Shown here piece after piece: positions 3,200 to 56,383 of a DNA stretch of 64,000 nucleotides. The notes beneath the pieces were generated by a model that did not search any database, had not been told where the DNA came from, and saw only the letters and a list, made by a program, of their open reading frames with translations. The position numbers were made by a program, and so were the translations under genes. Every line of letters starts with the position of its first letter. The stretch's first letter is position 1. Origin of the DNA: a virus; the IMG/VR virus record IMGVR_UViG_3300020202_000068, positions 1-64,000 of that record, one strand, 5' to 3'.

Positions 3200-4510
3200 A
3201 TGGTCACGGCAATCGTGGGCCAGGGTCCGCCCTTGGCCAAATCCCTGCACCCTGGCAGGCTGGTGAAGCTGCTCCAAGCCAGCAAGACCCAGGTGGGCTA
3301 CAACCACCGCCCGCCCGTCAATCGCGTCCTGCGGGTCCACAGTAAATACAGCTGGAAGGAGCAGCCCTGCGTTTACCTCCAGGATGAGCTAACCGGTACC
3401 ACCTACGGCACCACCGAGCTGGACAGCGTGTTCGCGGCGGTCAGTCGGCGCGAGAAGGCCGAATACCGGGACGAACTCACGAAGCTCTACATCTCCGGGA
3501 AACGCTCCCTGGGGGGTAATGGCTGTGGGGGACGCGGGACCGACCCGGAGGTGTTCGTGGTGAACGGGGAGGGCGAGATCATCCCCGCCTACCTGTTCCT
3601 CCCGTCCAAGGCCGCGCCGCTCTATATGAAGGGGGCCCTGGGGGACGTGAAGGCCTTCTACGACGGCTTCCAGGCTGAGTTCACGGTCGGCGTGGCTGGC
3701 TGCCACGAGAACCTCTGTCACGATGTCCGGTTGGGATTGAAGTCGATCTACGAGGCGGCTAAGAAGCTCGACCCCACAGCCAAGCTGACACATCAATGCG
3801 TCCTGGACCTGCCTGAGCACGTTTGGGCCACCACCCCCGCTGAGCAGCGAGTCTTGGGCTGCGATCCCTCCTCGAATGTCTATTTCGAGGGACCGAATCC
3901 CCGCCTGGGAACCGCCGAGGAGCTGCCTTTCCGCTTTGCGGGCTGCCACCTGCATTATGCGATCGGCAGCGATCAGTCCCTGAAGGCTAAGCAGGGGATC
4001 GTGAAGCTCCTGGATGCGATCTCGGGGGTCTGCTCAGTCAGCCTCCTGCGGGGCCTGGAAGACCCGCGTCGCCGGGCCTTCTATGGCCTGGCGGGGGAAT
4101 ACCGGCTGCCGCAGCACGGGCTGGAATGGCGGACGCTGAGTTCCGCGATTCTGATCCACCCGGTCGTTTGGCATTTGGTCTGCGATCTGTCCCGGAAGGT
4201 CGTGGCGATTGCCTTGAGCGATCAGGCCTTTATCTGGGACTGCTCCGCTGATGAGGCTCAGCAGGTCATTAACGACCTGAACGTCCCGCTGGCCGAAGAG
4301 ATCATCCACCGCAACGAGAAAGCCTTACACGCGATCTTGCTCGGCACGTATGGAGCCCAGGAGGTCATCGAGAAGTCCACCCGGCTGATCCTGGAAGGGG
4401 CGGAGAACTGCCTGCCATCGCTGGATGTGGTCGCCAACTGGCACCTCAACGAGGCCCAGTGGCCCCGCCAACCGCAAATGAGAAACACCACACTCAAGGC
4501 GAAGCCATGA
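3200..4510 (+). CDS. phiEco32-like COOH-NH2 ligase type 2 (glutamine synthetase-like fold)
   Basis: GTDPEVF, DGFQAEF, GCDP, RFAGCHLH, RRAFYGLAGEYR, GLEWRTLS motifs. Confidence 0.88.
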   Translation: MVTAIVGQGPPLAKSLHPGRLVKLLQASKTQVGYNHRPPVNRVLRVHSKYSWKEQPCVYLQDELTGTTYGTTELDSVFAAVSRREKAEYRDELTKLYISGKRSLGGNGCGGRGTDPEVFVVNGEGEIIPAYLFLPSKAAPLYMKGALGDVKAFYDGFQAEFTVGVAGCHENLCHDVRLGLKSIYEAAKKLDPTAKLTHQCVLDLPEHVWATTPAEQRVLGCDPSSNVYFEGPNPRLGTAEELPFRFAGCHLHYAIGSDQSLKAKQGIVKLLDAISGVCSVSLLRGLEDPRRRAFYGLAGEYRLPQHGLEWRTLSSAILIHPVVWHLVCDLSRKVVAIALSDQAFIWDCSADEAQQVINDLNVPLAEEIIHRNEKALHAILLGTYGAQEVIEKSTRLILEGAENCLPSLDVVANWHLNEAQWPRQPQMRNTTLKAKP

Positions 4511-5037
4511 CGGGTTACCTGCAAAATATCCTTCTTCAACCGCACCACCAAAGGAGCAATGCCGTGTCTGTTACCGCATCTATCAACCCCCTGCCGGTGT
4601 ACGTCACCGATGCAGACGTGAACCGGGTAGCACCCAAGAAAGAGGAGGATTGGGTCGTTAATTTTGGCGACCCGAACGACAGCGTTGAAGAGTTTCCGTT
4701 CTGCTGTGCCATCGGCGTCATCGGGCACGCGATCGCCACTGAAGGTGACTACGACCGAGAGATTGAGAGCCTCACGCCGCAGCACGGAGAAGCCTTCTTG
4801 AAAGCCATGAAGGAGGAGGTGGCTGGACGTTCTCGGGAAGGTCTAATCCTCTACACCGTCACCGACAACCAAGTGGTGGAGCGGGCAGGCCTGGAGGCGG
4901 TTGGCTTTCAAATCATGGCCGTCTTCAAGAACCCTAAGACCGGCAATCGGATCACGCTTTACGGTCTTTTGGTGAACCAGCCGCGTAGCCGGCCGGTCCA
5001 CCCTAAGGCCGCGAAGAAGAAGCTGAAGCGTAAATAG
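4507..5037 (+). CDS. hypothetical protein
   Basis: ATGA overlap with ligase gene. Confidence 0.65.
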   Translation: MTGYLQNILLQPHHQRSNAVSVTASINPLPVYVTDADVNRVAPKKEEDWVVNFGDPNDSVEEFPFCCAIGVIGHAIATEGDYDREIESLTPQHGEAFLKAMKEEVAGRSREGLILYTVTDNQVVERAGLEAVGFQIMAVFKNPKTGNRITLYGLLVNQPRSRPVHPKAAKKKLKRK

Positions 5038-5084
5038 TCCAGCCCTAGCTTTCGACAAAATGTAAGCGCAGGCTGCTTCTCACG

Positions 5085-5121
5085 GGCTCCGCCGGCTAAT
5101 AAGCTGGCGGGGCCTTTTTTT
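5085..5121 (+). terminator. intrinsic terminator
   Basis: 13-bp GC-rich stem GGCTCCGCCGGCT/AGCTGGCGGGGCC followed by T7. Confidence 0.85.
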
Positions 5122-5189
5122 GTTGAGTGGACGGACCAATGTTTGGTTCCTGTCACGAAGTCCCATGTTTTTCTTAGGAGGTAGGTTTC

Positions 5190-5612
5190 ATGGCTGTGAA
5201 AGCGACTATTGGTGGCGGTGGTCAGGTCGGCACGCTCTCGTTCAACGAGATCATCGGCTACACGCCGGGTCAGGGCCGGGGGGACGCGAAGAAGAACTGC
5301 TACCAGAATGTCAACAATGGCAACATTCTGGTCGTGTTCGGCGTCAACGCCCAGCTCGTCGAGTACGAGCGCCGGCCCAGCGGCAAGCGGACCAACCGCA
5401 CCGGACTGACGCGGGCCGGTATGTTCGTGATCGAGAAGAAGACGGGCAAGCTCCGTCCGGTGACGGCCGACCGCAGCCCTGATGGCAAGAAGGTTTGGGT
5501 GCCGTACTCGGGCTCGATCACCATCGGGGGTAACCCCCACGTCATCCAGCCAGGCCAGAACGCCCAGGCGGCTGGCAGCGACGAGTACGACGACGAAGAC
5601 GGCGAGGCCTAG
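5190..5612 (+). CDS. hypothetical protein, acidic C-terminus
   Basis: SD AGGAGGT, strong GC3 codon bias. Confidence 0.75.
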   Translation: MAVKATIGGGGQVGTLSFNEIIGYTPGQGRGDAKKNCYQNVNNGNILVVFGVNAQLVEYERRPSGKRTNRTGLTRAGMFVIEKKTGKLRPVTADRSPDGKKVWVPYSGSITIGGNPHVIQPGQNAQAAGSDEYDDEDGEA

Positions 5613-5628
5613 GCAATCTGGGCTAACC

Positions 5629-5670
5629 CAAAAGCGACATGACTGTGTCGCTTTTGACGTAAGTCCTTAT
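5629..5670. repeat. palindrome plus TAAGTCCTTAT element, copy 1
   Basis: CAAAAGCGACA-N6-TGTCGCTTTTG-ACGTAAGTCCTTAT; recurs at 31033 and 39333. Confidence 0.85.
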
Positions 5671-5774
5671 CCGACGTGAGTCGCGGAGGTCCGTTCACCG
5701 GCCCTGGGCAGTAGCTTAGGGCCGAGACGCGGTTTTCCCTGTCACAAAACCTAGAGGAGGAAGGAGGGGATGCT

Positions 5775-7970
5775 ATGCCCCAAAACAAACGCTTAGCGGG
5801 GGTTCTAGATACCGAACTCACCACGAAGCAAGTCGCCGATTGGCTCACCGAGCTGATCGAGAGATTCTCGAAAGCCGCCCCCAAGGGCTCCGGCGAGCGA
5901 ACCGCCAAGGACATCGTCAGCCCGCTCAAGAAGCGGGTGGAGGAGTACCTGGCCCATCGCAAGCAAGGCGACCCACATCGCACCTCAACCCACACCGACC
6001 TCTGTGAAGGAGTGCGATTCGCCCTCAACAGCTTCCGCAACATCATCAATGTAAAGTCGGTAGAGGGGCTCAACATCGAGCCCTATCAGGCCGTCGCGGA
6101 TCGGCGCTGGGAGGAAGTCGTCAATGCCCGGATCGAAGGCAAGCACTGGACGTTCCCGTGCTGCCACTGTGGCCGAGGCGGGACGGAGCTAATTGCAGAG
6201 AAGTATTTCTGCGTCCGCTGTCGGGATGTCTATACGGCCGTTTGCCGGGGGTGCGACGAGCGGTCGGATAAAGCCGACATGCGAGTCGTGACCAATGAAG
6301 ACGCGGCGGAGCTGTATTACTGCGAGGAGTGCGTCAGTGGGCTCGATACTCATGAATGCACGGCCTGTCACGTCCCTTACTTGGGGCGCGAGAACCACGG
6401 CCATCGGCACTCCGCCGAACTCAAGGCCGCTGGCATCTCCGCGTGCCGGAACTGCGCGCCTGGCTACCGGAAGCTGCACTGCGGGCACTGGTGGCCCAAC
6501 GGCGGACATCGGCAGGCGGTTGTCGTCGATACCGAGGACGACAATCGCGTCCGTGAGACCGTCATCGAGCAGGGGCAGCATGTCTGCGACAACTGCCTCG
6601 ACCGGCGACATCGGGACGATGCTTTGCCTGAGTTCTGGCGGCAGAAGGTCCCCAAGGTCAACGGCAGCCTCTTCACGGAGGTTGGCTCGCTACGGACGTT
6701 CGGGGTCGAGCTGGAGTTCTGCGAGGTCTATCAGATGCCTCGCATGAGCGACGACATTAAGAACTACTGGACCGCCAAGGAAGATGCCTCCCTGCCACGG
6801 GGCGGGGTGGAAATGGCTTCCACGATCCTCCATGGGGATGAAGGATTGCAGCGGATTCGCGAGCTATGCGAGTACGCTCATGCCCCGGAAGGCAACCCCA
6901 AGAAGAAGTGGGCCGTGGATGCCAGGAGTGGCTTTCATCTGCATGTGGGTCTGGCGACGGACAGCCAGGAGCAGGTGGCCGCGATTGCGATGGGGTATTT
7001 GCAGACGTACGAGCTGTGGCGGCTGTTTGTCGCTCCCAGCCGGACGAATAGCTGCAAGTATTGCCGCCGCAACCGGATCACCCCCGCTCAGCTCGTCGGC
7101 TATCAGCCTCGGGAGTACATCCAGAAGCTGACGGCTCTCGACGACCGGCGGGTGTGGTGCAATTGGCACTCCTATCCGGCTCGGCAGACTGTCGAGCTGC
7201 GGGTCCATCAGGGCACGAAGGTGTATGAGAAGATCGCGAATTGGGTCAAAGCCCATACGCGGTTCTGCGACTGGTGCGCCAGCCTGAAGAACCCCAAGAA
7301 GGTCTATGAGCGGCTCAAGGATTACGAGACGAAGCCGCGTGAGCTGTTTCTGATCGTGGCCCAGGAGGCCTGGAAGGATCGGGAGCTGGGTATGTGGTTC
7401 CGTAAGCGGGCAGAGGCGCTGCACGAGAAGGGCAATCGCCTCCTGTCGCATCGCAAGCTGCGGCAGAAAGGGATTGACCCGAAGGCAGTGCCGACGTTCA
7501 CCAACGGGACGCTGACCTTCAAGGGGAGAAGGCTGTTCGTGGTGGAGTACGAGCGGACAATCTACGTGATTGACCGCGAAAACATCCACGACTCGGGTGG
7601 CGTTAGATTCCTCCATCCAACCAAGGACGATTGGATCGCAAGCCCCAGTCGCCGATTTCTTACCCGAGAGGACGCCGAGAGGTGGTGCATTGAGCACGCT
7701 GATCAGAACCAAGTCCCAGTCGAGACGCTCGCGGACGAGATCGCTCGTCGCATAGCCCGGGCGAGCGAGAACCGGCGGGCACGTCCAGCGAATCGGGTTG
7801 TCATGCCGGAGTTCGCTATCAGCTCCGGGCCATGGACTCCTGATCCGCTGCCAGCGACTGTCGAGGTAACTGACGAGATCACGGCTGGCGATCGTCAGCT
7901 ATTAGATGATCTGGATGATGAGGACGAGCCAGAGGAAGAAGAGGAGTCGGTTGCGGACGACATCTTCTAA
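5775..7970 (+). CDS. amidoligase (Amidoligase_2-like) with N-terminal Zn-ribbon repeats
   Basis: RTFGVELE, EDASL, EMAS, SGFHLHVG, TVELRVHQGT motifs; multiple CxxC pairs. Confidence 0.85.
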   Translation: MPQNKRLAGVLDTELTTKQVADWLTELIERFSKAAPKGSGERTAKDIVSPLKKRVEEYLAHRKQGDPHRTSTHTDLCEGVRFALNSFRNIINVKSVEGLNIEPYQAVADRRWEEVVNARIEGKHWTFPCCHCGRGGTELIAEKYFCVRCRDVYTAVCRGCDERSDKADMRVVTNEDAAELYYCEECVSGLDTHECTACHVPYLGRENHGHRHSAELKAAGISACRNCAPGYRKLHCGHWWPNGGHRQAVVVDTEDDNRVRETVIEQGQHVCDNCLDRRHRDDALPEFWRQKVPKVNGSLFTEVGSLRTFGVELEFCEVYQMPRMSDDIKNYWTAKEDASLPRGGVEMASTILHGDEGLQRIRELCEYAHAPEGNPKKKWAVDARSGFHLHVGLATDSQEQVAAIAMGYLQTYELWRLFVAPSRTNSCKYCRRNRITPAQLVGYQPREYIQKLTALDDRRVWCNWHSYPARQTVELRVHQGTKVYEKIANWVKAHTRFCDWCASLKNPKKVYERLKDYETKPRELFLIVAQEAWKDRELGMWFRKRAEALHEKGNRLLSHRKLRQKGIDPKAVPTFTNGTLTFKGRRLFVVEYERTIYVIDRENIHDSGGVRFLHPTKDDWIASPSRRFLTREDAERWCIEHADQNQVPVETLADEIARRIARASENRRARPANRVVMPEFAISSGPWTPDPLPATVEVTDEITAGDRQLLDDLDDEDEPEEEEESVADDIF

Positions 7971-8014
7971 GCGTTAACTAACTGTCACAAACTCTTGATA
8001 AATAAGGACTTATC

Positions 8015-8245
8015 ATGGATCAATCAGATGGATTCAGGGGCCTACTGGACCGCGTGTCGGTCCATGGTCCTGAGATGTGGGAGAACGACACTGGTCCTCC
8101 TGGCTGGCACGCAGTCTCGCACGACGACCTAAGTATCGTCGCCTACTTCTTGTTTGAGGCTGACGCTTACCGCTATCGTCTGGACCTGATAAATCGGCTC
8201 CTGAACGAATTGCCTCCAGAGTTTCTGGGGGCCGGAAGTCAGTAG
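8015..8245 (+). CDS. hypothetical protein
   Basis: SD TAAGGA; overlapped by the 3' tail of the antisense HNH ORF. Confidence 0.55.
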   Translation: MDQSDGFRGLLDRVSVHGPEMWENDTGPPGWHAVSHDDLSIVAYFLFEADAYRYRLDLINRLLNELPPEFLGAGSQ

Positions 8246-8762
8246 TGCCGTCGTTCTTTTTGGAGTTGCAGGAGTGACACAGGGGCTGCCTGTTCGAGAT
8301 GCTGTTGGTGCCGCCAAGCGACACGGGGATCACATGGTCAGCGACCAGTCGATCCTTGCTGCCGCAAGCCAGACACCGATAGCCATAAACCGACAGGAGC
8401 AGCTCCCAGTCCTCTTCTGTCCAGGTTCCTCCTGCGGCGCGGAGGCGATCAACATACTGCCTCTCGTAGGCGCGTATCTTGGCCCTGTTCTTCTTGCGGT
8501 ACTCGGCCATGTAGGCTCTGGCCTTGGCCTTACCATCCTCAGAGGTTCTGTTGGCAGACTTACGTGCCTTTACGTCTGGATTGGCGTGATGCTCAGCTTG
8601 CTTTGCTCGCACCTTGTCGCCATGGGTGGCTTTATATCGCGCCCACCGGGCGGACTGACAGGCTCGGCAGTGAGGCTGCAAGCCGTCTTTAGCTGAGTGA
8701 CATTTAGCGAAATCCTCGACGAGTTTTTCGTGTTTGCAGGAGCAGCATGTTTTAGTTTCCAT
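8034..8762 (-). CDS. HNH endonuclease with N-terminal Zn finger (homing-type)
   Basis: CxxC..K....F N-terminus; CLACG...DHVIP...GG.N...N...LCHSCN. Confidence 0.85.
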   Translation of the reverse strand: METKTCCSCKHEKLVEDFAKCHSAKDGLQPHCRACQSARWARYKATHGDKVRAKQAEHHANPDVKARKSANRTSEDGKAKARAYMAEYRKKNRAKIRAYERQYVDRLRAAGGTWTEEDWELLLSVYGYRCLACGSKDRLVADHVIPVSLGGTNSISNRQPLCHSCNSKKNDGTTDFRPPETLEAIRSGADLSGPDDSGKRQPQTRSRRRYLGRRARLRASQEDQCRSPTSQDHGPTRGPVGP

Positions 8763-8768
8763 GCAGCT

Positions 8769-8796
8769 ACTGTATCATTTGCGAACTTACTGTCAA
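8769..8796 (-). promoter_or_regulatory. sigma70-like promoter of the HNH gene (leaderless)
   Basis: TTGACA-16-TACAGT with extended TG; ATG 6 nt after the -10. Confidence 0.6.
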
Positions 8797-8815
8797 GAAT
8801 AAAGGAGACCACAAA

Positions 8816-10354
8816 TTGTGCGGATTATTTGGCGGACTTGGTGCCAACATTAATGTCCATGCGGTGCGTCACCTCGCGGCTCTCAATGAGAGTCGGGGGC
8901 GTGACTCCGCTGGCTTCTTTGACCAGCATGGAGACTGGCTTAAGAAGGGTTATACCTCGATCACGGAGTGGCTCAAGGACGAAGGGCTGCGGGACAAGCT
9001 CCAGCGGATGTGCCTCACGGGGGCCGTCTGCGGGCATACCCGGGGCTCGACTCGTGGGAACCACAAGACCGAAAACGCCCATCCCTTCGCCTACGGCGAG
9101 GAGGGCAAGCAGGTAGTGCTCTCACACAACGGGGTGATCGACGCCCCGGCGAAGTACGACGTGGATTCGATGTACATGGCCGACTTGCTCGCTCAGGGCA
9201 AGCCTGGCCAGTACCAGGAGGCCTTGGGGGGTGTCTCGGGGTGGTACGTGCTGACCTGGCACGACGAGCGGACGGGTTGCATCTACTTCCTTAATTGGAC
9301 GGGCACTCTATGCTTCGCCCCGCTGGGGGACACGATCTACTACTCGTCCGCCAAGCAGCATCTCCAGCAGGTCCTGGCCCACCCTAAGATTCACGAGACG
9401 GTCTCGGGGGAGGTTTGGATGTGGACCGGCAAGAAGATGAAGCCGCTCAAGCACTTCACCGGGAAGGTGCGGACCTATACCCAGAGCAATAATTATGGCC
9501 AGCAATGGGACGACACCCGACCCTCTGGATCGGTTCTCAAGCTCCGCTCGACCGGCAAGTGGGTCGCCAACCTGCGTGGCGCTTACTTCGCGGAATTGAC
9601 CGACCAGGAGAAGTGGGAGGAGATGTACGGGAACGACCCCAACCCTTACACCTCCAATGGTAAGTGGCCCGGGTTTCAAGTGATCGAGGCGCATATCAAG
9701 AACGCGACCATCATTGACTTCGACGGCAAGCCCGTCTCCAAAAAGAAGCTGCGAAGAGGGATTCGCAGCTGGGTCGGTAACGACGACACCGAGCTGGAGG
9801 AGTCGGAGAAGCAGGGAGTGGTGGTCGTGGATAGTCCCGGCGTGGCCGATACCAAGGTTGTTACCACTGTCCAGAATGCCACCCCCGAGCAGAATGAGGC
9901 CCTCGATAAGTTCTTCTCAGACAACCAGATCGGCAAGGAGACGTGCGTGGCCTGTGAGGGAACGGGGCTGGCCACGCAAGGGAGTGAGTTACGCTGCCGG
10001 CCCTGTAACGGGACGGGCAAAATGATCGCTCACGCCCTCGTGAAGGCCGATGTCGCCAAGCGGGCGGCGGAGGCCGAAGCAGGGGACAACGTCGCCAAGG
10101 CCCTGGCCCTGCAAGAGGAGATCAATCGCAAACAGCGTGATCTTCGCTACCGGGACCGCTCCGATGCCTCGGCGGCTGCCAGAGCGGCCTTAAACGCCCA
10201 ATGGCAGAAGCTGAGGGCTAAGGGCATGGATGACGAGACGATCGGCAAGGAGCTGTGGAGGGCCGGATTCTACGAAGACATCTACGACCTGGACGAGAAA
10301 GACCTCCTCCCACTGCGGGGCTGGATGGAAAACGACGCCTTCGCCATGGACTAG
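8816..10354 (+). CDS. class II (Ntn) glutamine amidotransferase with C-terminal CxxCxGxG Zn finger
   Basis: MCGLFG, RGRDSAG, GHTR, NAHPF, HNGVI, DVDS motifs; TTG start after AAGGAG. Confidence 0.9.
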   Translation: MCGLFGGLGANINVHAVRHLAALNESRGRDSAGFFDQHGDWLKKGYTSITEWLKDEGLRDKLQRMCLTGAVCGHTRGSTRGNHKTENAHPFAYGEEGKQVVLSHNGVIDAPAKYDVDSMYMADLLAQGKPGQYQEALGGVSGWYVLTWHDERTGCIYFLNWTGTLCFAPLGDTIYYSSAKQHLQQVLAHPKIHETVSGEVWMWTGKKMKPLKHFTGKVRTYTQSNNYGQQWDDTRPSGSVLKLRSTGKWVANLRGAYFAELTDQEKWEEMYGNDPNPYTSNGKWPGFQVIEAHIKNATIIDFDGKPVSKKKLRRGIRSWVGNDDTELEESEKQGVVVVDSPGVADTKVVTTVQNATPEQNEALDKFFSDNQIGKETCVACEGTGLATQGSELRCRPCNGTGKMIAHALVKADVAKRAAEAEAGDNVAKALALQEEINRKQRDLRYRDRSDASAAARAALNAQWQKLRAKGMDDETIGKELWRAGFYEDIYDLDEKDLLPLRGWMENDAFAMD

Positions 10355-26925: not shown

Positions 26926-27402
26926 CTAGTTGTTGGCTGGGGTAACCCAAGACCGGCCGTTCCTGATGTGTTTAATAGCTGCCTGCGAAACACCAAAAGC
27001 GGTTGCCAGAATGCGCTCATGCACTCCGGCTGCGGATAGCGTTTTGATGTTTTCAACTTCCCATTTTAGCAGCCGCGACCTGTAGTGCCGCTCGCCGCAT
27101 GGGATTGTTCCGTGAGCGATCCGGTCACGATTGTTCTCGGTGACAGTGCCCCACACCACGTTATTGGCGTGATTGTTTCGGGGATTCCCGTCTTTATGGC
27201 GGCACACAGCCCCCGCAGGGCGAGGACCGTTAAAAGTCTCGCACACGAGTACATGAACGTGATACGTCTTGCCGTCTAGGGAGACGTTGAAATACCGCCC
27301 ATTCCACGATAGCTTCAAAGCCTTTAGAGAGCCACGCCTCTCACTGAGTATTAGCCCGTCTGTTGTCGCGTAATACCCAACACGATTGGCGATTGGCCTC
27401 AT
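26926..27402 (-). CDS. HNH homing endonuclease (NUMOD4/HNH_3-like)
   Basis: VHVLVCETF.GPRP...CRHKDGNP.NN...N..WGT..EN..D...HGT; C-terminal HTH-like segment. Confidence 0.88.
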   Translation of the reverse strand: MRPIANRVGYYATTDGLILSERRGSLKALKLSWNGRYFNVSLDGKTYHVHVLVCETFNGPRPAGAVCRHKDGNPRNNHANNVVWGTVTENNRDRIAHGTIPCGERHYRSRLLKWEVENIKTLSAAGVHERILATAFGVSQAAIKHIRNGRSWVTPANN

Positions 27403-27785
27403 TTCCTCTTTGGAACGCAAGGCAGTAGCTCCTTCCTTTTCTCTTTTGGGAGAACCTCCCTCTCTGCCAGCTCTACATCCCATTGTGTCCAGGTCTCTCG
27501 GGCGGCTCGTGAGGTAATGTGGCGGGTTTGCTCTCCGTCCTGCCAGTGACAGGTCCAGTAGCCAGTCTGCCAGTCCTTTTCCGGGAGCTGCTCGTGCTTC
27601 TTCACCAGCCGCCAGGCCCGTACATTGTAGCGGCCATCACCACCCGACCAGTCGTAAAAAATAACCTGATCGAAGACAAGCCTCCCATGCTCGTCAAAGA
27701 AGTGATTGACCTCAATGAGATCGACCGTCTCTCTGGAGGTGCTGTCACGCGGGATGACCCCTAGGAGCAGCAATAAGATCGGCAT
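27399..27785 (-). CDS. conserved hypothetical protein (planctomycete-like)
   Basis: VDLIEVNHFFDEHGRLVFDQVIFYDW...AWRLVK; family recalled from memory, not searched. Confidence 0.7.
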   Translation of the reverse strand: MPILLLLLGVIPRDSTSRETVDLIEVNHFFDEHGRLVFDQVIFYDWSGGDGRYNVRAWRLVKKHEQLPEKDWQTGYWTCHWQDGEQTRHITSRAARETWTQWDVELAEREVLPKEKRKELLPCVPKRK

Positions 27786-42120: not shown

Positions 42121-42318
42121 TTGGTGCTATCACGAAAAAAAGGCGAACGTCTTATTATCGGCGAGGACATCGCGATTGAGGTCGTCGAGGTCAGGGGAGA
42201 CCGCGTCAGGCTCGGCCTGGAGGCACCGGACTATGTATCCATCGTCCGGGAGGAGCTATTAGACGTGCTGCGGGAGCAGGCGCAGCGCGAGACTAGGCTG
42301 GCGAGGGCAGCCGGCTAG
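42121..42318 (+). CDS. csrA: carbon storage regulator CsrA/RsmA
   Basis: (M)LVLSRKKGERLIIGEDIAIEVVEVRGDRVRLGLEAP..V.IVREEL with the conserved R44 equivalent; TTG start after GGGAGG. Confidence 0.95.
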   Translation: MVLSRKKGERLIIGEDIAIEVVEVRGDRVRLGLEAPDYVSIVREELLDVLREQAQRETRLARAAG

Positions 42319-43236: not shown

Positions 43237-43865
43237 TGAACCCACATAAGCGCCGGGATACCATTGCCGATCGTCACTCCGCAATACTTTCCGTTGACGC
43301 TCGTAAGCGCTGTGCCACGGTTAACGACGCCCGTAATGTTCATCGAGGAGTCTGTTTGGTAGGTCGTGCCGACGTGCACACTGACAGTGCAGGTATTGCC
43401 CAAACTGACGTTTGTATCGTCAATCTTCCCAATGACCGTGTGAATTCCTAACCACTGAGCAACGACGACGTTTTGCCCGGCAGAGGTTGTAGCGCCGCCG
43501 ATAATTCCATAGCCGTAGTAATTTAGTTCCAGGGTGTGCTGCCCGTGCTTGGGACCATAGACCGCGCCGGCGGATGGGGCGCTGCCGTTGTAGCGCACAA
43601 AGCCTGGCTTCAGGAGATCGGCAGCCCAACCTTCACTGGAACTGCTGGCTCCGATCGCCCAGGGGCCAGTGACGTAATAGGCCCCAAAGTTGAACTGAGT
43701 GCTGGTGGAGTTGGGCTTGATGACAGACAACACGGGCTCGCCGTCTGAGGTCGTGACAGTGCCGTTCGCCAGGACCACGGAATGCGGCGGAATCACTGCT
43801 CCGGTCGCGTTCTTGACTCGGAACCAGTTGCGACGAAAGGATGGGGCGATTTCGTTGGAGATCAC
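43230..43865 (-). CDS. tail protein (putative)
   Basis: VKNATGAVIPP.SVV; beta-rich. Confidence 0.65.
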   Translation of the reverse strand: MISNEIAPSFRRNWFRVKNATGAVIPPHSVVLANGTVTTSDGEPVLSVIKPNSTSTQFNFGAYYVTGPWAIGASSSSEGWAADLLKPGFVRYNGSAPSAGAVYGPKHGQHTLELNYYGYGIIGGATTSAGQNVVVAQWLGIHTVIGKIDDTNVSLGNTCTVSVHVGTTYQTDSSMNITGVVNRGTALTSVNGKYCGVTIGNGIPALMWVQC

Positions 43866-45409
43866 GGCAGCTCCTCCAGCTTAAGGGCGAACCGCTTCTC
43901 CTGGGCGGAGCGATCGAGCACGTCGTACTCACCACCTTCATAGACCCTGGTCCGGGGAGGCTTATTGATCACCCACTCCCAGGTCACTTGGGCGATATTG
44001 CCGTTCAGTGTCCCGAATACCAGGCCTGGATAAGTGATCTCGCTGGAGTACGGACTTTGGTACTTGTCGATGAAGATTTGGACGTAGGCGTCGGCTTCAG
44101 CGATGGTCTGCTCCTCTGTGCTTAGCCCGCTCTGGAGGTCATAGACCGAGAACAGCTCGGGACGCCGGAGGAGCAGGTCACCGCCATCCCCGCCAACTGT
44201 CCCGAAGCGGTAGATACCGCCCACAAACCCCTCGACGGTCTTGAGCTTATAAGCCGTAATCAGATAGAGCGTTGGCTCGGCAAAGGTCCCCGTGCTGGAG
44301 AGCTTGAAGAGTGGCGTATTAAACTCCACGATCTGCCGTTCCCTATGGAGGACGAACGGCACGAAAGATCGCGAGTTGGTGTGATTAGTGGCGATTTCCA
44401 GATAGCCCCAGCACTCCCCGACCTCGACGTAGGGCTGGAGGCTGTGCTGGACGTTGTGATAGTCGGTCTCGGAATAGAGGATGTAGTCCTGGAGAATGTA
44501 TTGGTTGATGTTCGTGATCGGGAAGGGGAAGTTCCCGACCGGCAAAGTGCCGTTCTCCTGGCCGATAATCTTGTACATCCGGTACACATCCTCGAAGGCC
44601 CGAATGCGATGCTGGGCATTGCCCGACAGGCCAGCGAATATCCAGGGGTGCTCGTAATCCCAACCACCAGCGGGTTTGATGTTGGTTTGGGAGAGCGACT
44701 TCTGCTGGTTGCTGGGATAGTCCCGACAAGCAGCCTGAAGCCTTAGCCGGCTCTGCCAGAGGCTGTCTCCGCAGATCACCACCACGCGGTTGGGGACGTT
44801 GGCCCGAGGAGCGAACTGCACCTTCGGCAGGACCTCGCCGACATCCGTGGGCGTCCCATTGCCCTGCCCCAGCCGCCAGATTTCCACCTGATTCGTGAGT
44901 GGGTTCAGCACGACCTCGCAGGCTACATAGTCACAGAGCCGCTGAAGGGCGATGTCCGCTCGCTCGTTCTGCCAATTGCAGCGGGGAAAGACCCCGCCCG
45001 GCATTTGACTCACGTCGTAGCCTGACTCGCCGATGGCATCTAAGAGCAGGGTCGCTAATTCAGCTGGTGACTTCCTGGTGATCTCGTCGATCTCGCCCGC
45101 CGCTGTCCGTCGGTTCCAGTCGCCCCCGATCGTCTTCCCCGCCCACCGCCACCGCCGGTCTAAGAGATGCACGGCCAGGATCGGGTGGCCATTATGACGC
45201 TGCCGGAGATGGGCCGATTTGATGGCCATATCCGGGAATTGCAGGGAGATTTCGTTGTAGGTCAGGGTGAGCGTACCGACTGAATCCACGACCTCTTGCG
45301 GGGTTAGGTAAAGACAGGCGACCGAGGGGGTCACGCCCCGCGCAAACGGGAAGCGGACGGCCCGGATACCGCTGAGTCCGCTATGCGTAATCCCTGATTG
45401 AATCGGCAT
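43862..45409 (-). CDS. baseplate hub/tail protein (putative)
   Basis: DRRWRW, AL..LCD...C.VV pattern; position after tail genes. Confidence 0.6.
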   Translation of the reverse strand: MPIQSGITHSGLSGIRAVRFPFARGVTPSVACLYLTPQEVVDSVGTLTLTYNEISLQFPDMAIKSAHLRQRHNGHPILAVHLLDRRWRWAGKTIGGDWNRRTAAGEIDEITRKSPAELATLLLDAIGESGYDVSQMPGGVFPRCNWQNERADIALQRLCDYVACEVVLNPLTNQVEIWRLGQGNGTPTDVGEVLPKVQFAPRANVPNRVVVICGDSLWQSRLRLQAACRDYPSNQQKSLSQTNIKPAGGWDYEHPWIFAGLSGNAQHRIRAFEDVYRMYKIIGQENGTLPVGNFPFPITNINQYILQDYILYSETDYHNVQHSLQPYVEVGECWGYLEIATNHTNSRSFVPFVLHRERQIVEFNTPLFKLSSTGTFAEPTLYLITAYKLKTVEGFVGGIYRFGTVGGDGGDLLLRRPELFSVYDLQSGLSTEEQTIAEADAYVQIFIDKYQSPYSSEITYPGLVFGTLNGNIAQVTWEWVINKPPRTRVYEGGEYDVLDRSAQEKRFALKLEELP

Positions 45410-45424
45410 TTAGGAGAACTTGCG

Positions 45425-45622
45425 ATGGATGAGATGCGAATGACTTCTGAGGCTCTGGATTACGTGGATAAGCTGCACTGGAGGTTTAATAAGCTGCTGT
45501 GTGATGCCGCCTTCTCAGAGGCTCATGAACGTGGCCGGGAGGTTGTGCAGGTAATTGATGTCCAGCATGTGCTCTCCAGGGTCTGTGAGCGGATATTCGA
45601 TGAGGAGATCGCCAAGCACTAG
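45425..45622 (+). CDS. histone-fold protein lacking helix alpha1
   Basis: gapless match of RMTSEA...AAFSEAHERGREVVQVIDV to archaeal HMf RVSDDA...EAIKLARHAGRKTIKAEDI; SD AGGAG. Confidence 0.7.
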   Translation: MDEMRMTSEALDYVDKLHWRFNKLLCDAAFSEAHERGREVVQVIDVQHVLSRVCERIFDEEIAKH

Positions 45623-46947
45623 CTGAAGGTGATGGTCTTGTTCGTCCGTGGATGAATGATGGTGACTTCATCAAGAGTGCAATCAATCAGCTGGATTACT
45701 ACGTTCCCGGTCCTTCCCTGGGGGTCCCTGAAGGTTGATCCGGCAGACATGGTGATCGTGTTGGTGATCGCGAAGCTGGCCACGCCCTTGGTGCAGTCGA
45801 TCTCGCCACCGTTGAGGTCGAGAGTGGTGATCGTCGCCGCCCCAGTGGGCCAGAACTTCGCTCCCTTGTTCACGGTCAGGCTGGTAATGGTCCCGGCCCC
45901 ATGCTTCCAGATGCCACCGTTCGCCACCCCAGTCGCTAAAGCGGAATTGGTAGTCAGGCTCCCGCCGTTGATCGTGACCGTGGCGGAATTGAACGTGACT
46001 CCTGAGCTACAATAAGTCTCGGCCTGGGAGGTGGGGCCGCTACCGTTGATCAGCGTCGTGCAGGTAAAGGTCTCACCGCCATAAAAAGCCAGCCCCACAT
46101 CCCCGTCGAGGTTCCGCACGACGTTGGAGTTGTTGTTGCCGATCAGGAGGATGCAGGGGACACCGTTTGTTTCCCGCGTACCCTTACCGAAGACGTTATA
46201 GACCGAGGCGACTGTGCCGCCGTCGAGCTTGATCCGCCCGCTGCCAGGTCCCGCCCCGACTTCCAGGTCGGCATTCGTGAAGCCGTCAGCCGTGAGGTAT
46301 TGAGGGGTGCGGTATTCCGGGTAGGGGTTCGCCGAGTCATCGACGTTCGTCCGGGCCAATCCGATCTTGCCGTTGTAGCTCTTGTACTTCGTGAATTGGG
46401 TGACCGCGATCGCTCCCAGGTCCAGCTCCCACAGGCAGTCCACGCTGCCGGTGTCGAAGATGACCGTGTCGCCATTACCAGGAACCGCGTTACCATCCCA
46501 GTTATCGGCCTGATTGGCGTGATTGCGGCTCGTGGCGGCTGTAGCGGCGTTGGTGTAGTTCACTGCACCGTCGCCAGCCGTCGTCTCCGCTTCCGTCATC
46601 GTGAACGGCGTGCCAGCTAGAACCCCTGTGCCGGCCGTCGTAATCGTGACCGTGCTGGAGCTGACCGTAGCTGAGAGGTTGCCGAACTGCGGAATGCCCT
46701 GTGCCCCAAGGTCAGCGATCGAGGGCACGCAGCTGGCGGTCGTGTCGGCAAGAGTGTCGCCGTTTAGGGCCTCTTTGATCGTGGTGGCAACGCCGGCTGT
46801 GGTAGTGTTGGCACCAATCGTGATCACGAAATCGACATTCGCGATCGTGTACGTTTCAGTGTCTCCGGCCCCCCACGTACCAGACACGATCGCTGTCGCG
46901 ACTTGCCGCACCGCCTTCGAGGCACCAATCCATTTTGCAGTGGCCGT
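45619..46947 (-). CDS. tail protein with beta-helix region (probable ACG start)
   Basis: Thr/Gly-rich; frame open to ACG-GCC-ACT-GCA-AAA-TGG behind an SD hairpin. Confidence 0.7.
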   Translation of the reverse strand, partial: TATAKWIGASKAVRQVATAIVSGTWGAGDTETYTIANVDFVITIGANTTTAGVATTIKEALNGDTLADTTASCVPSIADLGAQGIPQFGNLSATVSSSTVTITTAGTGVLAGTPFTMTEAETTAGDGAVNYTNAATAATSRNHANQADNWDGNAVPGNGDTVIFDTGSVDCLWELDLGAIAVTQFTKYKSYNGKIGLARTNVDDSANPYPEYRTPQYLTADGFTNADLEVGAGPGSGRIKLDGGTVASVYNVFGKGTRETNGVPCILLIGNNNSNVVRNLDGDVGLAFYGGETFTCTTLINGSGPTSQAETYCSSGVTFNSATVTINGGSLTTNSALATGVANGGIWKHGAGTITSLTVNKGAKFWPTGAATITTLDLNGGEIDCTKGVASFAITNTITMSAGSTFRDPQGRTGNVVIQLIDCTLDEVTIIHPRTNKTITFS

Positions 46948-52577: not shown

Positions 52578-52877
52578 TTACTCCTCTGAGAATGGGATTG
52601 GTGGCATGTACGACTGAACGACCTGTTCGCCTCTCGCGGCCCCCATAGCCACGGCCAATCCCCTGTCGATCTCCATCTCGGGCTCATCAGCAAGCCGCAG
52701 ATTGTTCAGGAAATTGGCGTACTGCGAGGCACGGCGATGATGGTCTGGCCCATAAAAGCAAGTCACCATCGCGTTATCACGGAGGTACGGTGTATTGACC
52801 GGGTGGCACTCCACTCGCGTGCAGCCGCGATATGCCTGGTCAGGCATGACGTTGATTAGGTAATCGCAGTAGTTCAT
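52578..52877 (-). CDS. hypothetical protein
   Basis: ATGA overlap with portal stop. Confidence 0.5.
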   Translation of the reverse strand: MNYCDYLINVMPDQAYRGCTRVECHPVNTPYLRDNAMVTCFYGPDHHRRASQYANFLNNLRLADEPEMEIDRGLAVAMGAARGEQVVQSYMPPIPFSEE

Positions 52878-55800
52878 TTCTTACTCCCTGAGGGTTTCGG
52901 CTTGGCTGCGGCTACGGCTTTTGTAGCCTGCACTTTCGCCTGTGTCGTTTGTTTGGTGCTATCCACTTTGGCCTTCGTGGCCTGCTTGGATTGCTCGATC
53001 TTCTGCTGGCCCTGGGCCTTATCGAGCTGCATCTTCTGAGCGCCCTGGGCGAGCTGCTGGCCTCCCTGCGCCTTCTGGAGCTGAAGCTGCTGCCGTCCCT
53101 GAGCAATCTGAAGAGCCCCCTGCTCCTTCGTCACGGCCAGGTCCACCTGACCCTTCTCCTGCTGGAGCTGGAGGTCCTGCTGATGCTCCTGTTGTTTGAA
53201 CTGCATGTCAATCTGCTTTTCCTGAATCTTCAGTTCCAGCTCGACACGCTTGGCCTCTAGCTCAGCTTGCAGCTTCTGCATTTCCATCTGGAGCCGCTGG
53301 ACTTCAGCCTCCTGCTCCATCTGGAGTTCCTGCTGCTTGAACTGGGCTTCCATTTGAAGCTCGACCATCGGATTGGCCTGGGCCTCGCCCTGGAGCTTCA
53401 TGGCCTCGGCCTGGAGCTTCTGAACCTCTGCCTGCTTCATCTGCTGATCCAGCTGGGCGTTCGGATCATTCGGGTCCTTCTGCGGGAACATGAGTCCGTC
53501 CAGCTCCATGTCGTGCAGTTCCGCGAACTTCCGCATGTAGCCGTTGGCCGGCTCGTAATCGCCGGAGAGTTCCCCGTACTTCTGCACCATTGGCAGGAAG
53601 CGGGTCCCGAACTCAGAGAAGTTGTCGATGTCTCGATCCTTGTTTGGCCGGCGGATACTGGCCGCTGCGACCTCGTACCTCATCTGCCGCATGATCAGCT
53701 CGTGGTCGGCGTTCTCGATGTACTGGGCCCAGAGAGAGGCTCCCGTGCGGCCCATGAGCGGGGCCACGTCCTTGCTCTTCACGAACATCCAGGCGATCAA
53801 GGCCTCGACGCTGGCCACCCGGCTCTGCCACTCCACGACCTTCTTCTGCATGTGCTCGGGACGCACCCCGACCGCTTGCTTGCGGGCGTTGGTGGTCTCG
53901 GCCGTGCGGTCCTGGGTGCCGCCTTCGTTCTGGCCATACACGAACGGGGTCATACCCATCCGCTTATCGAACAAGCTGTTCAGTAGCTCCAATACCTCCC
54001 AGGGGTCCTTATTAATGTCCTTGCCCTCGACGAGCTGGATCATCTTCTTGACATCCTGATCACCGCCGATGGGAATCCCGAAGACGCTCATATCGTCGCC
54101 GTCTTCGAGCTGCTTCTTCAGCTCGTCGTGGTACTGGCTCATCACGGCCCACATCTGCCGGCTGGATTGCCAGGTGCGGTTCACGAGCCAGGAGACAATG
54201 GCGTTGATCGCCTTTAGCTCACCCAGAGCGGGAGCCAATGGAGGGAGTCCGTATGGACTGTCTGTGTCCTGGTAGAAGATGAGTCGCTCAACAGGCCATC
54301 TATCATCGGTCCAGAGAGGGATAGGCCACTCGAAATGTGATCTAACCTCTTCAGAACTAGCTCCGCTCCTAATTTTGTCGGATGGGCAGTTGAGTGGGTA
54401 CGGGCAATCAGGGCAGATCGCAAGGTAGGCGTAATCACCGACGGTTTCCTCCAGCTGATTCTTGAGCATGTCCGGCATCCCGGTCATCCGGCTGCCGACA
54501 CCGCATTTCGACCAGATTTCGTACCAGACCACCAGGTCGTTCGTCTTCCCGCTCTTCCGCTCTCCGGTGGCTTGGCCTTCCTGGCTCATGGCTTCGGCGT
54601 AATGCCAGCCTGACTCTAGGGAGGCCTTGCCTTTGAGAGCGCCTTTAGGGAGCTTGAACTTCCGCTCGACCTGCCAGTGGGGCTGGATGTGCTTGCGGGC
54701 CACCCACTTACACTGTTGGGAGGTCTTGAAGTCAGGGTCGTAGATCAGGTCTTCCGGGGGGCAATGGAAGCAGCCAGTGAGCTGGAGATCGGAGCCCGGC
54801 ATCGTATAGGGACCCGGGATCAGGCAGCCCGCCCCCTTGAGCATGGCGTCTAGGACCGCCAGTTCGTTATGGCCCGAGAGCCCGTCCCCCGGCATTTCCC
54901 GGGGCGTGTAGTTCAGCCACTGCTGCATCATGTGCCCGACGATTTTGTCGCTGGCACTTTCCTGGGCAGCTTGCTGCTGAATGAACTGATAGAGCTGCTG
55001 ATCGGGGAACAGCTCGGGTGGGATTTCCAGCAGCTTTTTGCTCGTAGCTGTGCGATGCGGTACGTCCCATAAGAGATTGGGGCCGAAAACCGCCACATAC
55101 TCGAAAGCCTTGTTGATATTGATCCGAAAGCGGGGAGCCTTCACTCCCCGCCAGAACTTCTTGGCGTACAGCGGGTCCCACATGGCAGCCGCTGACTTGC
55201 CGTAGAACATGACGCAATTGCCGCTAATTAGCGGCTTGCCGTTGCGGCGTGTGATCAGCGTACCGTTCGGGACGGTGGCGCAGTACACCATTCCGTCGTA
55301 CTGCTCCGTGTGGTACTTCAGCTTAATCTCGTCGCCGGTGTGTCGCTTTAGAGAGGCTCGCTTGCCTTCGCTCCAGGAGGTCACGAGGTAGAGCTTGCCG
55401 CTCATCCCGGTCCTGGTTTCGAGGCCTGGGTCGGTGATCGCGTATGGTGCTGGCTGTCTCTCGCTGATCGAGGCGCTGCGGCCGATCTTGAGCCACAACT
55501 CCTGGATGTCATCGGCAAGCTGTTTGCTGGCTGTTCCTGATATGGCATGGCCGTGGCGGACGTGGCCGTCACCGGCCAGATACCCACGCAGGAACGCGCG
55601 GATCACGTTCTGGGGGGAGTCTTTAACCCACTGAGGAACCCGCTTGTCGTAGCAGCTTGTGCCGAACTGGCGAAGGTATTCGCACAGCTCCTTGCTGGTG
55701 AATGTGTACGACTTCATCAGCTTGCTATACGGCGGAGCTGGGAACCCGACCCGCTTTGCCAGCTGCTCGTAATACCTGCGTCCAGCCGTCTTTTTCTGCG

Positions 55801-56383
55801 CAATGCCAACTCGATATGGAACGCGAGCTTTCTTCTCGCTCTTTTTCGAGCACCAGCCTTCGGCAATGTAAAAGCCAAGCCATTCGGCGAAGTCAGCCGG
55901 GTCGGTGTCGCCAACGAAATCAGGCAATCTCGGCTTAGTGCCATGCCAATTGGCTGAGGTCAGCTTTAGTTGCTCGCTACGGCGAAGGGAGCTGGCTTCC
56001 TTCAGGGCGGCCCGCCCGGAGTGTGGCGGGAAAAAGACCATTCGGTGGCCTGGGGTCACCATGGCGTCAAGAGACTTACCGGCAAAGCGGATCATCTCAC
56101 CGGCCCTGTGGTGACGGACCAGCCTGGTAGGAACCTGGAACTCGATTGTGTCGGTTTCCAGGTTCACGGTCCCAAGCGGCTCGTCGCCGGTTAGGTCACT
56201 GAAGAGCATCCAGCCGGTGCTGGTGAGCACCTCTGTTTGCTCGTCATGGCATTCATCCGCCACTTCCTTCCACCGCTTGCGGGCGGGGCAGGTCAGCGCA
56301 GACTCCAGCTTGGCTAACCAACCTGTAACAATAGGGCGCAGGAATTCATAATTCCTGTCCTCGAAGGCTGCCAGGTCTTGCAT
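52874..56383 (-). CDS. portal protein (P22-like, Q-rich C-terminal coil) containing an intein
   Basis: DAMLKGAG, PEDL.YDPD...CKWVA, RTAET motifs; position after TerL. Confidence 0.85.
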   Translation of the reverse strand: MQDLAAFEDRNYEFLRPIVTGWLAKLESALTCPARKRWKEVADECHDEQTEVLTSTGWMLFSDLTGDEPLGTVNLETDTIEFQVPTRLVRHHRAGEMIRFAGKSLDAMVTPGHRMVFFPPHSGRAALKEASSLRRSEQLKLTSANWHGTKPRLPDFVGDTDPADFAEWLGFYIAEGWCSKKSEKKARVPYRVGIAQKKTAGRRYYEQLAKRVGFPAPPYSKLMKSYTFTSKELCEYLRQFGTSCYDKRVPQWVKDSPQNVIRAFLRGYLAGDGHVRHGHAISGTASKQLADDIQELWLKIGRSASISERQPAPYAITDPGLETRTGMSGKLYLVTSWSEGKRASLKRHTGDEIKLKYHTEQYDGMVYCATVPNGTLITRRNGKPLISGNCVMFYGKSAAAMWDPLYAKKFWRGVKAPRFRININKAFEYVAVFGPNLLWDVPHRTATSKKLLEIPPELFPDQQLYQFIQQQAAQESASDKIVGHMMQQWLNYTPREMPGDGLSGHNELAVLDAMLKGAGCLIPGPYTMPGSDLQLTGCFHCPPEDLIYDPDFKTSQQCKWVARKHIQPHWQVERKFKLPKGALKGKASLESGWHYAEAMSQEGQATGERKSGKTNDLVVWYEIWSKCGVGSRMTGMPDMLKNQLEETVGDYAYLAICPDCPYPLNCPSDKIRSGASSEEVRSHFEWPIPLWTDDRWPVERLIFYQDTDSPYGLPPLAPALGELKAINAIVSWLVNRTWQSSRQMWAVMSQYHDELKKQLEDGDDMSVFGIPIGGDQDVKKMIQLVEGKDINKDPWEVLELLNSLFDKRMGMTPFVYGQNEGGTQDRTAETTNARKQAVGVRPEHMQKKVVEWQSRVASVEALIAWMFVKSKDVAPLMGRTGASLWAQYIENADHELIMRQMRYEVAAASIRRPNKDRDIDNFSEFGTRFLPMVQKYGELSGDYEPANGYMRKFAELHDMELDGLMFPQKDPNDPNAQLDQQMKQAEVQKLQAEAMKLQGEAQANPMVELQMEAQFKQQELQMEQEAEVQRLQMEMQKLQAELEAKRVELELKIQEKQIDMQFKQQEHQQDLQLQQEKGQVDLAVTKEQGALQIAQGRQQLQLQKAQGGQQLAQGAQKMQLDKAQGQQKIEQSKQATKAKVDSTKQTTQAKVQATKAVAAAKPKPSGSKK
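55217..56251 (-). mobile_element. intein with LAGLIDADG (DOD) homing endonuclease, 345 aa
   Basis: E|CHDEQTEVLT..GW, VTPGH, WLGFYIAEG, FLRGYLAGDG, VYCATVPNG..ITRRNG....GN|C. Confidence 0.93.

Follow-up and report, generated by a model that had tools for sequence, protein, structure and literature searches.

Recognition of bacterial histones dates only from 2023–2025. Histone-fold proteins have already been catalogued in phages, both as 'phage histones' (Schwab et al., 2024; PMC11390915) and in a survey that distinguishes six viral histone-fold types, including VTTHFP, VHHHFP, VFFHFP and BBVHFP (Liu et al., 2025; PMC13681535). All of the catalogued phage and viral classes keep the α1 helix together with conserved lysines or arginines, and most of them have a truncated α3 (PMC11390915, PMC13681535). 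In the bacterial dimer histones (HBb/Bd0055) α3 is cut to 3–4 residues and α2 is shortened; conserved DNA-binding lysines are found in α1, the RKT tripeptide also contacts DNA, and the RxTxxxxD motif structures the L2 loop (PMC11390915).

Here, we describe a 65-codon open reading frame (ORF), the product of which is referred to as P0001, in an uncultured soil phage. The window, i.e. the whole stretch of DNA that was analysed, comprises 64,000 nucleotides from the beginning of a 77,276-bp IMG/VR record (IMGVR_UViG_3300020202_000068) that CheckV rates as complete. On balance, we favour the reading that the ORF is an accessory gene of a phage that probably infects Planctomycetota, and that it encodes a truncated and degenerate histone fold that would not bind DNA and would act via protein contacts.

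P0001 has traits of several of the described groups. Like the bacterial dimer α3 histones of the HBb/Bd0055 type, it is small and predicted to form a dimer, with local similarity at residues 23–46 only; unlike them, it is devoid of α1 and the conserved lysines, carries REV for RKT and is acidic where they are basic, and it has a 19-residue C-terminal helix and an α2 of nucleosomal length instead of their curtailed α3 and α2. To the archaeal nucleosomal histones (HMfB; HMk, PDB 1f1e) it can be aligned without gaps from L1 to α3, with the same length of α2 and with conservation of the L1 arginine and the L2 arginine–aspartate pair, but it differs from these in the missing α1, a sub-threshold Pfam score, the lost lysine and threonine, an extra C-terminal helix and its acidity. 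Similarly, it resembles the catalogued phage histone-fold proteins in its tailed-phage origin, its small size, its single histone-fold unit and its C-terminal helix beyond the fold, yet it does not keep the α1 and the basic residues that all of those classes keep. VTTHFP and the phage histones have a complete α3 fold, then a loop and a long C-terminal tetramerization helix, whereas the helix of P0001 continues α3 without a loop.

The insertion at a virion-gene junction

The terminase, major head protein, tail-tube protein and other virion genes of this phage are encoded on the minus strand at approximately 42.6–63.9 kb. The ORF (45,425–45,622, plus strand) lies between two genes of this virion module, a divergent gene of 515 aa (43,862–45,409, minus strand) and a convergent gene of 430 aa (45,619–46,911, minus strand). 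It starts with an ATG at 45,425 and ends with a TAG at 45,620–45,622, and a Shine–Dalgarno-like AGGAG, read directly at 45,412–45,416 on the plus strand, is positioned 8 nt before the ATG. The stop codon overlaps that of the 430-aa gene in a CTAG (45,619–45,622), and the gap between the ATG and the first base of the 515-aa gene at 45,409 is 15 nt (45,410–45,424). These observations confirm the description given in an earlier sequence-only reading of this DNA, namely a 65-aa ORF with a good Shine–Dalgarno sequence, a stop shared with the convergent gene in CTAG and a start close to the divergent start at 45,409. An in-frame TGA at 45,395–45,397, 10 codons upstream of the ATG, leaves no room for an α1. 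A TTG start at 45,398 (74 aa) was considered and rejected, as the longer frame would gain just 9 residues, would run over the divergent start codon and is without a Shine–Dalgarno sequence.

The 515-aa protein has 39 metagenomic homologues, 30 of which make up an alignment (A1) in which M1 is invariant; with this alignment, 11 related IMG/VR loci were retrieved, 10 of them with the junction. In nine of these 10 loci the flanking genes lie 0–22 nt apart, from an overlapping TAATG upwards, and the 430-aa protein shares 62% identity with its counterpart in locus L002, through to the same C-terminal T-F-S. Since the flanks abut in relatives and both gene ends are conserved, the intervening 209 nt (45,410–45,618) constitute a clean insertion, which the ORF and its 15-nt leader fill. 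The GC content of the insert is 51.7% compared to 58.8% for the genome, which places it in the lowest 3.3% of 209-nt genome windows. The tenth locus (L010; 2580–3001, plus strand) carries a different insert at the same junction, with a same-strand ORF of about 140 codons that encodes hydrophobic, membrane-like stretches, begins 2 nt past the upstream stop and ends with a stop that overlaps the next start codon. The presence of an unlike insert at the same position indicates that the junction is a recurrent landing site for accessory genes. A diverged relative of the phage also co-occurs in one of the soil samples, as judged from a 187-nt contig of a single run that covers 45,198–45,373, over the 5′ end of the 515-aa gene, with 31 differences; this contig stops short of the insertion.

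Codon usage in the ORF scores approximately 0.25 bits per codon, which matches the average over 38 long phage genes and is attained by less than 1% of off-frame windows; the frame directly antisense to it yields 0.23 bits per codon, but is interrupted by stops. Of the six frames across the insert, only the ORF is open, and it is so from edge to edge. That the insert might extend either flanking gene was ruled out by stops in all three minus-strand frames. Contigs from four soil metagenome runs are identical over the ORF. A consensus scan of the plus strand, the coverage of which does not extend to planctomycete promoters, revealed no sigma-70-like promoter and no terminator; the insert is too small to hold its own promoter or terminator, and a promoter serving the ORF could only be located antisense within the first codons of the 515-aa gene. 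Taken as a whole, it is quite likely that 45,425–45,622 is a real protein-coding gene.

Accessory insertions of the lambdoid type in late operons are known as morons. As in morons, an extra gene is found here between genes that are adjacent in relatives, with a deviant base composition and an orientation independent of the operon; unlike morons, it has no detectable promoter or terminator of its own, and the inserted DNA hardly exceeds the ORF in length. We consider the ORF to be, very probably, a recently acquired gene of the moron type. It is accompanied in the same late operon by a second antisense gene, an intact csrA (42,121–42,318, plus strand; Pfam CsrA, E = 3.4e-19), the stop of which likewise overlaps that of the convergent gene via CTAG.

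Other passengers and modules are apparent elsewhere in the genome. A 1169-aa ORF (52,874–56,383, minus strand) contains a LAGLIDADG_3 domain at residues 260–309 (E = 5e-14), which suggests an intein or a homing endonuclease within a large phage protein, and two HNH endonuclease genes (8034–8762, Pfam HNH, E = 4.5e-11; 26,926–27,483, HNH_3, E = 1.8e-11; both on the minus strand) represent further mobile-element-like passengers. A three-gene cluster at 3200–10,354 (plus strand), comprising a phiEco32-like COOH–NH2 ligase, an amidoligase_2 and a class-II glutamine amidotransferase-like gene, resembles peptide-ligase modules known from some phages. Beyond the window, at record positions 67,080–67,556 (plus strand), there is a small serine recombinase (Resolvase, E = 2.2e-19; open frame of 293 aa), and no tyrosine integrase was found in the phage genome.

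Histone-fold likeness and absent features

Three lines of sequence comparison place P0001 on histone folds. With the Pfam profile PF00808 (CBFD_NFYB_HMF), residues 2–50 match profile positions 17–65 of 65 without gaps (E = 8.2e-4), at a score of 20.0 bits that is below the gathering threshold of 21.4, and in a six-frame scan of the 77-kb genome with the same profile the ORF was the only candidate (19.4 bits, E = 9.3e-5). The best PDB sequence match by phmmer was the second fold of the Methanopyrus kandleri histone 1f1e, to which residues 5–50 align gaplessly with 17 of 46 positions identical (E = 0.41). Seven α3 'bacterial dimer' histones of Planctomycetota (59–73 aa), reached via PF00808 matches in the phylum, were used for a further alignment (A2), and hhalign of P0001 against it gave P = 2.5e-4 over 24 columns (residues 23–46); the common region consists of the C-terminal half of α2 and L2, with L-C-D-A-A...A...G-R-x-x-V-x-x-x-D. 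An HMM built from 30 α3 histones of Planctomycetota gave P0001 13.5 bits, a score that none of 5000 shuffles attained (best shuffle, 10.9). PF00808, 1f1e and the α3 profile of Planctomycetota agree in the same register. By contrast, hhalign against full-length planctomycete histones (profile A3, n = 4) was not significant (P = 0.08). The proposal in the sequence-only reading that about 45 residues align gaplessly with L1–α2–L2–α3 is upheld by PF00808 and by the 17 of 46 identities to 1f1e.

From the Pfam and 1f1e alignments, the α2-equivalent long helix is assigned to residues 7–36 (45,443–45,532, plus strand; helix 2–36 in the AF2 model), and R5-M-T-S directly ahead of it represents the last part of L1. 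The sequence and profile alignments place L2 at residues 37–45, G-R-E-V-V-Q-V-I-D (45,533–45,559, plus strand), after which α3 is prolonged as one 19-residue C-terminal helix at residues 45–64 (45,557–45,616, plus strand; helix 46–64 by AF2), with Pfam coverage ending at residue 50. Within the RxTxxxxD motif, R38 and D45 are present and correctly spaced, while the threonine is replaced by V40 and the adjacent lysine by E39; the L1 'sprocket' arginine (R5) is kept. P0001 contains 14 aspartates and glutamates versus 9 lysines and arginines, amounting to a net charge of about −5 and a pI of 5.2, compared to a median pI of 8.9 among 30 histones of Planctomycetota. The missing α1, the retained GR (G37–R38) and R-x6-D (R38-x6-D45), the change of RKT to REV and the non-basic character had all been pointed out beforehand, and each holds. 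The absence of α1, the change to REV and the acidity together make it unlikely, as far as can be judged from the sequence, that P0001 binds DNA.

Structure prediction gave a less uniform picture. The ESM Atlas model of P0001 (pLDDT 0.84) returned histone-fold families in eight of ten structure rows, with TM scores of 0.61–0.81 normalized by the query and neighbours that include CENP-X, archaeal histones and H4, and AAA_lid_2 in one row (TM 0.68/0.75). Its ten best family-bearing feature matches all fall within a single family or clan, that of the histone fold; one third of shuffled proteins display the same uniformity, and we treat the ESM Atlas matches as leads, not as proof. AF2, run on the single sequence, folded P0001 into a hairpin of two helices (2–36 and 46–64; pLDDT 74). 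With this monomer, Foldseek found nothing below E = 4.8 in the PDB, VIA-align found only generic hairpins and coiled coils there (Z up to 6.5), and a search of BFVD gave no specific match. On the refuting condition named in the sequence-only reading, a predicted structure that is not a histone fold, the two models thus point in different directions: the ESM Atlas neighbours are mostly histone folds, whereas the AF2 monomer is a plain hairpin without a specific PDB match. We regard descent of P0001 from a histone fold as likely.

Homologues proved elusive. A word-indexed search of 5.8 billion clustered proteins recovered only P0001 itself, HMMER over 1.84 billion representatives gave two spurious matches (a repeat protein and a GAF-repeat protein), and a search of IMG/VR yielded no homologue. 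Against 401 Planctomycetota genomes, P0001 had 13 matches at E up to 0.1, which is fewer than expected by chance, and PF00808 had no match in 10 related phage records. Four viral contigs were recovered with A2, and these encode full α3 histones that all keep α1. In their first survey, Liu et al. applied a cut-off of E below 1e-5 (PMC13681535), which P0001 would fail. The suggestion of a new phage histone class is not supported in that form, as phage histone-fold proteins are already catalogued and P0001 is a single ORFan in one phage, without a match in the 10 related records. It fails the defining features of every named class and is better described as a singular variant than as a class member; what is new is the combination, in one phage, of a missing α1, acidity, a prolonged α3 and a location antisense within the late operon.

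Predicted pairing and the probable host

A symmetric homodimer of P0001 was predicted by ESMFold2 with a score of 0.41, as opposed to 0.00 for the best of three controls, and so passed a mark that 21 of 30 one-chain pairs of solved structure attain, compared to none of 23 solved single chains. Contacts agreed between runs to at least 95%, and the partner pLDDT was at least 79. The predicted contacts connect residue 21 to its counterpart, which marks the crossing point of α2, residues 25 and 29 to 10 and 14, and residues 39–43 to 4–10. In the model, this pattern would fit an antiparallel histone handshake in which L2 packs against the N-terminal end of the partner, but a dimer of plain hairpins or an antiparallel two-hairpin bundle would give a similar contact map. 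Because histone dimers are among the solved structures, the pass may moreover reflect likeness rather than binding.

The best clue to the host is csrA. Its relatives were confirmed in at least six GTDB genomes, all of them metagenome-assembled genomes (MAGs) of Planctomycetota among the matches listed, at 43–58% identity, and sequence relationships of this kind suggest that the host is probably a member of this phylum. A scan of GTDB genomes with A1 found no prophage relatives, and a search of INPHARED found no related phages. Profile A2 detected α3 histones in 184 of 401 sampled Planctomycetota genomes (G016–G415; loci L026–L062), which makes a histone-bearing host plausible; PF00808 detected 13 of the same 401, nine of them above the cut-off, showing that Pfam badly under-detects α3 'bacterial dimer' histones. 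Two MAGs of Planctomycetota (G011 and G018) contain unusually many CsrA-family matches, six and nine, respectively, and some of these copies may be prophage-borne.

Neither PF00808 nor profile A2 found a histone in the five MAGs with the closest csrA among the matches listed, and in a subsample CsrA was present in 8 of 32 histone-positive versus 12 of 20 histone-negative genomes, a negative association. In addition, the likeness to planctomycete histones extends to just one half of the pairing helix, together with L2, and the α2 of P0001 is of nucleosomal length, 4–5 residues longer than that of planctomycete α3 histones, and this would strain a heterodimer with a planctomycete histone. The link to planctomycetes drawn in the sequence-only reading consequently stands in part: the csrA relatives, all from Planctomycetota among the matches listed, and the 184 of 401 genomes with α3 histones speak for it, while the five histone-free MAGs and the length of α2 speak against.

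Competing readings and a possible role

Several other explanations must be weighed. The gene could be real and its histone likeness convergent, P0001 then being a generic helical-hairpin dimer, Rop-like or AAA+ lid-like, with an unrelated role, e.g. in anti-defence or regulation. This would account for the plain hairpin of the AF2 monomer, the best PDB matches of which (Z 5–6.5) are unrelated hairpins and coiled coils, for the single AAA_lid_2 row and for a sub-threshold Pfam match with no homologues found to anchor ancestry. We nevertheless find convergence unlikely, given that three separate sequence tests lead to histone folds in the same register with no shuffle out of 5000 scoring as high, that no AAA-lid, Rop or other Pfam family is matched even at E up to 10, and that G-R-x-x-V-x-x-x-D falls exactly at the position of L2. 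That P0001 is a functional phage histone of a new class, which binds DNA and compacts or bends that of the phage or host, appears very improbable: the histone-fold similarity, the retention of R5 in L1 and R38 in L2, and the existence of phage histone-fold proteins (PMC11390915, PMC13681535) and of the four viral contigs with full α3 histones would be in keeping with it, but the net charge of about −5 (pI 5.2), the absent α1 lysines and the replacement of the lysine and threonine of RKT by glutamate and valine are not, and all four of the recovered phage histones keep α1.

It could also be argued that the 209 nt are non-functional, left over from an insertion (for instance a captured gene that has decayed to a fragment) and open in one frame by chance. 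Confinement to one phage lineage, with absence from 10 related records, the lack of a promoter or terminator in our scan, a fold truncated by the loss of α1 and an antisense codon score close to that of the ORF are what decay might leave behind. It would, however, hardly be expected to leave the sole open frame of six running edge to edge from an ATG with a well-spaced AGGAG, nor a confident predicted fold (ESM pLDDT 0.84) and a predicted dimer, and csrA, the second antisense gene in this operon, is intact and has a CTAG stop overlap of the same kind. Furthermore, two virion genes that are otherwise tightly coupled are separated by the insert, and because this comes at a cost, neutral junk would not be expected to last at this site. 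We accordingly judge a remnant to be less likely than convergence, and more likely than a DNA-binding histone.

We return to the reading of P0001 as a non-DNA-binding histone fold encoded by an accessory gene, which the phage would have acquired recently, in the manner of a moron, between two virion genes. The protein would retain the last residues of L1, a full-length α2, an L2 with its structural arginine and aspartate and a prolonged α3, and be without α1. It may pair with itself by the handshake surface, with α2 crossing antiparallel at residue 21 and L2 reaching the N-terminal end of the partner, and it may act by protein contacts instead of DNA binding. As the ORF is antisense inside a late virion operon, its product would have to be made while that operon is quiet, and expression might take place early in infection or in a carried state. 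Of the earlier interpretation, the real-looking gene, the L1–α2–L2–α3 likeness, the missing α1 and the loss of basic DNA-contact residues are retained, the planctomycete link is retained in part, and the new class is not.

Small acidic phage proteins that inhibit host nucleoid proteins are presumably the closest functional parallels; as such we take T7 gp5.5 and T4 Arn, directed against H-NS, and SPO1 Gp46, directed against HU. Like these, P0001 is small, acidic and encoded by an accessory phage gene, and its plausible target is a chromatin protein rather than DNA. It has no relationship to them in sequence or fold, however, and they are not known to derive from the fold of the protein that they inhibit. 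We infer, tentatively, that the role most likely for P0001 would be to interfere with one of the host's nucleoid proteins, by poisoning a host histone-fold protein as its partner or by serving as an acidic decoy, although even this role is doubtful. A poison or decoy aimed specifically at a host histone is unlikely, and slightly less likely still is a dominant-negative 'anti-histone', in which a histone-fold fragment, captured from or modelled on a bacterial histone and keeping the dimerization helix and L2 but neither α1 nor any DNA contact, would pair with a host histone, or cap it as an acidic decoy, and strip it off DNA in the course of infection.

If true, such an anti-histone would be the first phage counter-measure against bacterial histone chromatin, and our literature search found no report of phages interacting with bacterial histones. 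A pairing surface without the DNA-binding parts would also be a ready-made probe of whether bacterial histones matter in infection and of whether heterodimerization can poison them. Whatever the target of P0001, the locus is a clean example of a virion-gene junction that is reused as a landing site for accessory genes.
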